A DNA stretch of 5,652 bases from the IMG/VR virus record IMGVR_UViG_2529292833_000006, one strand, 5' to 3'. The notes below the pieces were generated by a model, which saw only the letters and a program-made list of their open reading frames with translations, was not told where the DNA came from and did not search any database. Shown piece after piece: positions 2,215 through 3,239 of the stretch (position 1 is its first letter; each line of letters begins with the position of its first letter). Source of the DNA: a virus (taxonomy: Duplodnaviria > Heunggongvirae > Uroviricota > Caudoviricetes). Made by a program: the position numbers and the translations under genes.

Positions 2215-3239
2215 ATGTCGATGTACACAACCGCCCAGCTGCTGGCGGCAAATGAGCAGAAATTTAAGTTTGATCCGCTGTTTCTGCGTCTCTTTTTCCG
2301 TGAGAGCTATCCCTTCACCACGGAGAAAGTCTATCTCTCACAAATTCCGGGACTGGTAAACATGGCGCTGTACGTTTCGCCGATTGTTTCCGGTGAGGTT
2401 ATCCGTTCCCGTGGCGGCTCCACCTCTGAATTTACGCCGGGATATGTCAAGCCGAAGCATGAGGTGAATCCGCAGATGACCCTGCGTCGCCTGCCGGATG
2501 AAGATCCGCAGAATCTGGCGGACCCGGCTTACCGCCGCCGTCGCATCATTCTGCAGAACATGCGTGACGAAGAGCTGGCCATTGCTCAGGTCGAAGAGAT
2601 GCAGGCAGTTTCTGCCGTGCTCAAGGGCAAATACACCATGACCGGTGAAGCCTTCGATCCGGTTGAGGTGGATATGGGCCGCAGTGCGGCGAACAACATC
2701 ACGCAGTCCGGCGGCACGGAGTGGAGCAAGCGTGACAAGTCCACGTATGACCCGACCGACGATATCGAAGCCTACGCGCTGAACGCCAGCGGCGTGGTGA
2801 ATATCATCGTGTTTGACCCGAAAGGCTGGGCGCTGTTCCGTTCCTTCAAAGCCGTCAGGGAGAAGCTGGATACCCGTCGCGGCTCTCATTCCGAGCTGGA
2901 GACAGCGGTAAAAGACCTGGGCAAAGCGGTGTCTATAAGGGAATGTATGGCGATGTGGCCATCGTCGTGTATTCCGGACAGTACGTGGAAAACGGCGTCA
3001 AAAAGAACTTCCTGCCGGACAACACGATGGTGCTGGGGAACACTCAGGCACGCGGTCTGCGCACCTATGGCTGCATTCAGGATGCGGACGCACAGCGCGA
3101 AGGTATTAACGCCTCTGCCCGTTACCCGAAAAACTGGGTGACCACCGGCGATCCGGCGCGTGAGTTCACCATGATTCAGTCAGCACCGCTGATGCTGCTG
3201 GCTGATCCTGATGAGTTCGTGTCCGTTCAACTGGCGTAA
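2215..3239 (+). pseudogene. E: Major capsid protein (lambda gpE-like) interrupted by an apparent -1 frameshift near 2934
   Basis: ORF-track pieces 2215..3141 (frame 1) and 2943..3239 (frame 3) together give the full gpE sequence. Frame 1 reads ...KDLGKAVS to 2934; frame 3 reads YKGMYGDVAIVVYSGQYVENG... from 2934. The two codons share one base, consistent with loss of one T (GTGTCTTATAAG to GTGTCTATAAG). Frame 1 then runs into out-of-frame sequence and stops at 3141. Confidence 0.8.

Follow-up and report, generated by a model that had tools for sequence, protein, structure and literature searches.

The major capsid gene E in the window, the whole 5,652-nt stretch of lambda-type prophage DNA analyzed here, is split by a single-base deletion, and this break most probably (a probability of roughly 0.8) represents a consensus or assembly artefact arising from merged prophage copies and not a biological lesion. 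The key to reading the E lesion is a set of further deletions in C/Nu3 and Z on the same contig, whereas the original prediction had considered E alone. In total, the contig has eight small deletion events, of which six lie in Z and one each in C/Nu3 and E.

An exact-protein look-up revealed that the window is the entire contig AQDY01000028.1 of the draft assembly GCA_000355395.2, and the context of the protein records EMW68774.1 and EMW68771.1 identifies the strain as E. coli 2756500, a name taken from the EMW68774.1 record. E. coli 2756500 is named among CS7-expressing ETEC strains in one paper, in which the sequencing method is absent, and no literature was matched under the accession or the assembly name. 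On the basis of the exact-protein look-up and synteny, the contig carries on its plus strand (1-5652) a lambda-type block consisting of B' (3' end), C/Nu3, D, E, FI, FII, Z, U, and V' (5' part). It is colinear with positions 3931-9583 of lambda and with annotated prophages and phages, and it retains the lambda head-gene order C/Nu3-D-E-FI-FII. The portal gene B, represented by its 3' end, and V, represented by its 5' part, are both cut by the contig ends. The intact D, FI, and U proteins of the window are very widespread alleles, occurring in 9,425 to 22,322 index blocks and in long unrelated genomes.

Several other features of the block were observed. For the D-E segment at 1990-2500 (511 nt), no copy among the 4,729 in complete E. 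coli genomes exceeds 98.6% identity, despite the very dense sampling of the lambda-type block. A 12-nt insertion (1797-1808) near the C/Nu3 stop, at the 3' end of the gene, makes C 443 aa long instead of 439 aa and is common to 8 of 72 relatives, including the closest genome, that of strain 90-9280. Directly 3' of the E stop, a terminator-like GC hairpin followed by a T-run (3242-3259, plus strand) overlaps the annotated alternative FI start.

Among related loci, three in draft E. coli genomes (L091, L092, and L094; approximately 5400-10333) have a lambda-type head block that stops after D and is followed by genes encoding an integrase, AlpA, DUF4222, and a D5/Pox_D5 primase, with L094 also encoding a TIR-domain protein. 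This arrangement resembles the insertion of a satellite or island, P4-like or PICI-like, between D and E. In another locus (L115, 92-3540), lambda B-C-D-E is replaced, upstream of an ordinary FI-FII-Z-U-V series, by genes for a different 346-aa Phage_cap_E protein, a 113-aa decoration-protein homologue, AlpA, a Nu1-type small terminase, and a DUF2971 protein, and this segment may be a capsid-encoding satellite adjoining or within the prophage.

Gene E (2215-3239, plus strand) is 1025 nt long in the window, versus 1026 nt in all 72 aligned full-length relatives, each of them distinct and carrying a 341-codon E, and in all 86 matching phage records. Its N-terminal 240 codons (MSMYTT...GKAVS) occupy frame 1 at 2215-2934 and match PF03864 positions 1-214, and its C-terminal 101 codons plus the stop (YKGMYGDV...VSVQLA) occupy frame 3 at 2934-3239 and match PF03864 positions 234-328; both pieces were delimited from their ORFs, the first also by pairwise alignment. 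Read from the ATG at 2215, frame 1 arrives at the junction as GGC AAA GCG GTG TCT, with Ser240 at 2932-2934, and runs to an out-of-frame stop at 3141. Read from 2934, frame 3 begins with TAT AAG GGA ATG TAT GGC GAT GTG and continues to the normal E stop at 3239. T2934 is the sole base common to both pieces, and the deposited sequence at the junction (2933/2934, plus strand) reads GTGTCTATAAG. The ORF as written (2215-3141, plus strand), deposited as EMW68774.1, therefore encodes 308 aa, comprising 240 gpE residues and a 68-residue out-of-frame tail. These features bear out the original description of a gene split by a 1-nt deletion between a frame 1 piece ending in KAVS and a frame 3 piece beginning with YKGMYGDV, with a one-base overlap at 2934 and a product of about 240 native residues plus an out-of-frame tail.

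The alignment to lambda E that had been proposed as a check gave the same answer. Pairwise alignments with E. coli 90-9280, lambda, mEp332, and Chlobot each contain a single 1-nt gap after 2932/2933, which places the lost base between C2933 and T2934 on the plus strand. The lost column corresponds to the synonymous third position of Ser240; 59 of the 72 relatives read TCC TAT and 13 read TCT TAT. Since the closest haplotypes have C at this position and T is confined to a minority, the proposal of one missing T of a TT pair is right for the TCT allele (13/72) and wrong for the TCC majority (59/72).

The identity of the gene as lambda E and the unity of its two ORFs were also confirmed. Restoring one base yields a 341-aa protein that is identical to lambda gpE at 336 of 341 residues, matches PF03864, and is encoded in a syntenic set of head genes, and gpE homologues span the junction in the 86 phage records and the 72 relatives. 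Against the PF03864 cutoff of 22.9, the 308-aa ORF scored 146 bits, the 98-aa C-terminal ORF scored 82.6, and the repaired protein scored 239; the repaired protein covers profile positions 1-328 in one stretch, whereas the pieces cover 1-214 and 234-328 separately. Its match to the solved structure of the lambda capsid protein (7vi9) extends over residues 1-341 (E = 1e-226). The window thus has a clear Phage_cap_E profile match and, in place of one uninterrupted frame of about 341 codons, a frame change at 2934. The E frameshift truly exists in the deposited sequence and is not an accident of ORF arrangement. Codons 241 to 341 differ from those of lambda by 4 synonymous and 0 nonsynonymous changes. 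Because all 101 residues after the junction are identical to those of lambda gpE despite the 4 synonymous codon differences, no sign of relaxed constraint is apparent in the repaired E as predicted from the sequence. The extra stops, excess of nonsynonymous changes, and mixed indels expected of a genuine pseudogene under relaxed constraint were not found.

Searches for the E deletion elsewhere returned only the window itself. Among 4,524 copies in 3,197 of the 5,426 complete E. coli genomes, the best match was 120/121, with the gap as the sole difference, and a 30-mer over the E junction had no match in the 5,426 complete genomes. The 30-nt junction pattern likewise had no exact match in 185,579 GTDB species representatives or in IMG/VR, and the truncated E and C proteins occurred on one contig only among approximately 15 billion proteins. 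Reproduction in independent assemblies or relatives, as is expected of a genuine pseudogene, was therefore not found for E; of all the events on the contig, it was found only for a 2-nt deletion in Z. Among the 72 relatives, Z is broken in 3, C in 2, and E in 0.

Frameshifted gpE products with other shift points do exist. Other 308-aa gpE products in the same 90% cluster change frame elsewhere, within residues 233-255, after AVK, AVKD, AVKDL, DLGK, GMY, or AIV. These frameshifted proteins (P0002-P0014) were found in at least 10 other public assemblies, some of them chromosomes of about 5 Mb, and one variant was present on 47 Logan contigs. They were rejected as instances of the same lesion since their shift positions differ, and they are independent events with a common out-of-frame stop. 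Because gpE is shifted at other positions in other assemblies, including the approximately 5-Mb chromosomes, real E pseudogenes do occur elsewhere.

The other deletions in the window fall in C/Nu3 (488-1818, plus strand) and Z (4053-4624, plus strand) and were placed by alignment. The 1-nt deletion at 1385/1386, in a column that reads G in 70 and A in 2 of the 72 relatives, splits the 443-codon C into ORFs of 308 and 135 aa; it lies downstream of the internal Nu3 start, and Nu3 would therefore be broken too. The six events in Z (4103-4358) remove 7 nt, with gaps after 4103 (2 nt), 4115, 4147, 4167, 4334, and 4358, and the 192-codon Z falls into three frames. Once the missing bases are put back, C (443 aa), E (341 aa), and Z (192 aa) are all restored, and no further stop or shift is encountered. 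Immediately before the E start, the intergenic T-run at 2203-2208 has one T fewer than that of most relatives (position 2208: T61/A8/gap3); the length of this run varies naturally and is uninformative either way.

Over the whole window, there are 9 strictly private deleted bases in 8 events, 0 private insertions, and 2 private substitutions. When 43 relatives were scored, 39 had no private deleted bases, two had one block deletion each (19 nt and 9 nt), and two had a single 1-nt deletion; scattered deletions like those of the window were found in none of the 43. The E deletion, the C deletion, and five of the Z events were absent from every other genome searched. The exception is the 2-nt deletion after 4103 (CAGC--AACGG), which is identical in the finished genome of E. 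coli ATCC 8739 (NC_010468.1, ECOLC_RS11245), where Z is annotated as frameshifted (4469-5045 of locus L086, corresponding to NC_010468.1 2294221-2294797). The same deletion was also observed in strains B-3008 and KCTC 2571. With this 2-nt deletion, Z is a real, lineage-shared tail-gene pseudogene.

The dropped bases coincide with positions at which relatives differ. Of the 10 dropped columns, eight hold a common SNP among the 72 relatives, defined as one with the minor allele in at least 7 of the 72 sequences, compared with an expectation of 10.7% that allows for gap sliding within homopolymers (binomial P = 6e-7). An earlier panel of 43 sequences gave 7 of 10 versus 7.6% expected (P = 1.4e-6). 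The allele counts at the eight columns are C59/T13 at 2933, A41/G30 at the second base of the gap after 4103 (4103b), T38/C34 at 4115, T55/G17 at 4147, G49/T23 at 4167, G49/A23 at 4334, T47/G25 at 4358, and T61/A8 at 2208. A conflict of base against base poorly explains two of the dropped columns, the first A at 4103 and column 1385, which is only weakly polymorphic (G70/A2). The A at 4103, the one dropped column without variation in the panel, is accounted for by the ATCC 8739-type 2-nt deletion.

The coincidence with differences between copies was tested on proxy haplotypes from other genomes in place of the strain's own copies. Over 4015-4518, the complete genomes of strains 90-9280 and 504838 agree with all retained bases of the window except C4126, at which the window sides with 504838. 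The two genomes differ from each other at six columns over this interval, five of which are among the seven dropped by the window. Compared with such genomes, the Z region of the window matches at 291 of 298 positions, and all of the differences are gaps. The window Z looks like the part shared by two real haplotypes. In a copying-model mosaic test, the window tiled in at least 24 panel segments and real relatives tiled in 1 to 52; the test is not discriminating because the lambda-type block is naturally very mosaic. The substitutions give no independent sign of chimerism, which, judging from these comparisons, would show only in the indels. Panel diversity just outside the window ends rises modestly, which is not sharp enough for a repeat boundary.

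These observations are consistent with a contig into which several copies of one element were merged. The lambda-type block has a match in 4,260 of the 5,426 complete E. coli genomes, with the number of places in each reaching 9 and having a median of 2, and the closest genome (90-9280) has 3 places of the block; near-identical prophage copies are thus usually present more than once in an E. coli genome. The window is a short draft contig of a multi-copy element with its errors on columns where copies differ, and a short draft contig ending inside both B and V has the look of a collapsed repeat. From the deletions, their coincidence with SNP columns, their privacy, and the otherwise intact genes, all of which are observed, we infer a collapse of copies and a step that dropped bases. 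Reads from at least two near-identical copies of the prophage, or from templates mixed in some other way, would have been merged into one consensus, and the consensus step would have emitted nothing at the few columns with conflicting bases. For E, this column would be the third position of Ser240 (TCC/TCT), a synonymous C/T difference, and its loss would produce an apparent -1 frameshift. The real copies in strain 2756500 would then have an intact 341-codon E, an intact C/Nu3, and most or all of Z. The exception is the ATCC 8739-type 2-nt deletion in Z, which one copy may carry and which is probably genuine in at least one of them. Under this account, only deletions are seen, and on SNP columns, because the consensus dropped discordant columns; the Z events cluster within 260 nt because the copies would diverge from each other over this short stretch; and the genes are otherwise intact and the lesions absent elsewhere because the breaks would belong to the merged-copy consensus and not to the organism.

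The original prediction had offered two causes, an inactivating lesion or a base-calling error, without choosing between them. The error branch is favored here, in the form of a consensus artefact at the positions that distinguish the merged prophage copies and not of a random base-calling or homopolymer error. A homopolymer error of the 454, Ion, or nanopore type was rejected as the main cause, since most of the dropped bases lie outside runs of more than 2 and random errors would have no reason to follow SNP columns. The lesion branch holds that the contig faithfully copies a decaying cryptic lambda-type prophage in which C/Nu3, E, and Z were inactivated by small deletions, leaving it unable to make heads or tails. 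The finished ATCC 8739 genome lends this reading some support, since the 2-nt Z deletion is common to it and annotated there as a frameshifted pseudogene; at least one lineage is therefore truly defective, and a tail-defective prophage could decay further. The frameshifted gpE genes in other public genomes, and the relatives with a broken Z (3/72) or C (2/72), point in the same direction. However, eight deletions with 2 private substitutions and no insertions per 5.6 kb are not the spectrum of natural decay, and the deletions fall on SNP columns (P of about 6e-7). A 260-nt part of Z contains five extra 1-nt deletions but no substitution when compared with real haplotypes; no other damage is present, the protein after the E shift is fully conserved, and the E, C, and five Z events are missing from all other genomes searched. 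A faithful copy of a decaying prophage is accordingly considered unlikely. A variant in which the deletions are real and were made at heteroduplex mismatches, when two diverged prophage copies recombined or converted and faulty processing removed a base, accounts for the deletions on SNP columns, its sole support, which the consensus artefact explains equally well. For deletions lying exactly on SNP columns, sequence alone cannot separate such a heteroduplex process from a consensus artefact. To our knowledge, no mismatch-repair pathway turns base-base mismatches into 1-nt deletions at such a frequency, and approximately 4,500 to 5,200 block copies in complete genomes contain no second example of these events, the 2-nt Z deletion excepted, which makes deletion at heteroduplex mismatches very improbable.

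The frameshift could also be decoded, with ribosomes slipping by -1 at 2934, aided by a downstream hairpin, to give full-length gpE. A 16-bp RNA/DNA hairpin inside E (2940-2975, plus strand; -27.9 kcal/mol, z = -3.07) starts 5 nt after the junction, at a spacing typical of -1 frameshift stimulators. This hairpin, which lies in the MYGDVAIVVYS region, is not specific to the frameshift; it is equally present in intact 1026-nt E genes and is kept in most intact relatives at -27 to -29 kcal/mol. The site itself reads G GUG UCU (2928-2934) and is not a slippery X XXY YYZ heptamer, the shift is conserved in 0 of 72 relatives and 0 of 5,426 complete genomes, and the C and Z shifts of the same contig lack such a context. 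With neither a slippery site nor conservation, programmed -1 frameshifting at 2934 is effectively refuted and retains almost no credibility.

The choice among these explanations matters for how the strain and its records are interpreted. If the lesion were real, the ETEC prophage would be a cryptic remnant unable to build capsids, which would bear on prophage inducibility or satellite mobilisation. If the heteroduplex explanation were true, a mutational process that turns inter-copy SNPs into 1-nt deletions would have inactivated C, E, and Z together. With the merging of prophage copies as the preferred explanation, the deposited truncated gpE (EMW68774.1) and truncated C (EMW68771.1) are probably annotation artefacts, and the E frameshift itself is best classified as an error of assembly or consensus instead of a trait of the organism. 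When a draft assembly contains short contigs from multi-copy prophages, frameshifts in them should not be scored as pseudogenes. The combination of many private 1-nt deletions, no insertions, and placement entirely on inter-copy SNP columns offers a diagnostic for such errors that can be applied without reads.

In comparison with known systems, the gene resembles lambda gpE (J02459 6135-7160; PF03864; structures 7vi9 and 7sj5) in sequence and in its neighbors, which are C/Nu3 and D on one side and FI, FII, Z, U, and V on the other, but the window ORF ends after 240 native and 68 unrelated residues. The ATCC 8739 prophage shares only the 2-nt event; none of the window's other seven events is present there, and its C, its E, and the remainder of its Z are undamaged. 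Like the programmed -1 frameshift of lambda G/GT, the E shift is located inside a morphogenesis gene with a downstream structure, but the E junction has neither a slippery heptamer nor conservation, and the G/GT site itself lies outside the window. A collapsed repeat normally yields one allele or an ambiguity code. In the window, by contrast, the discordant column appears to have been dropped. In all other respects considered, collapsed-repeat consensus errors look as the window does, with a short multi-copy contig, errors at the positions where copies differ, and genes that are intact once repaired.
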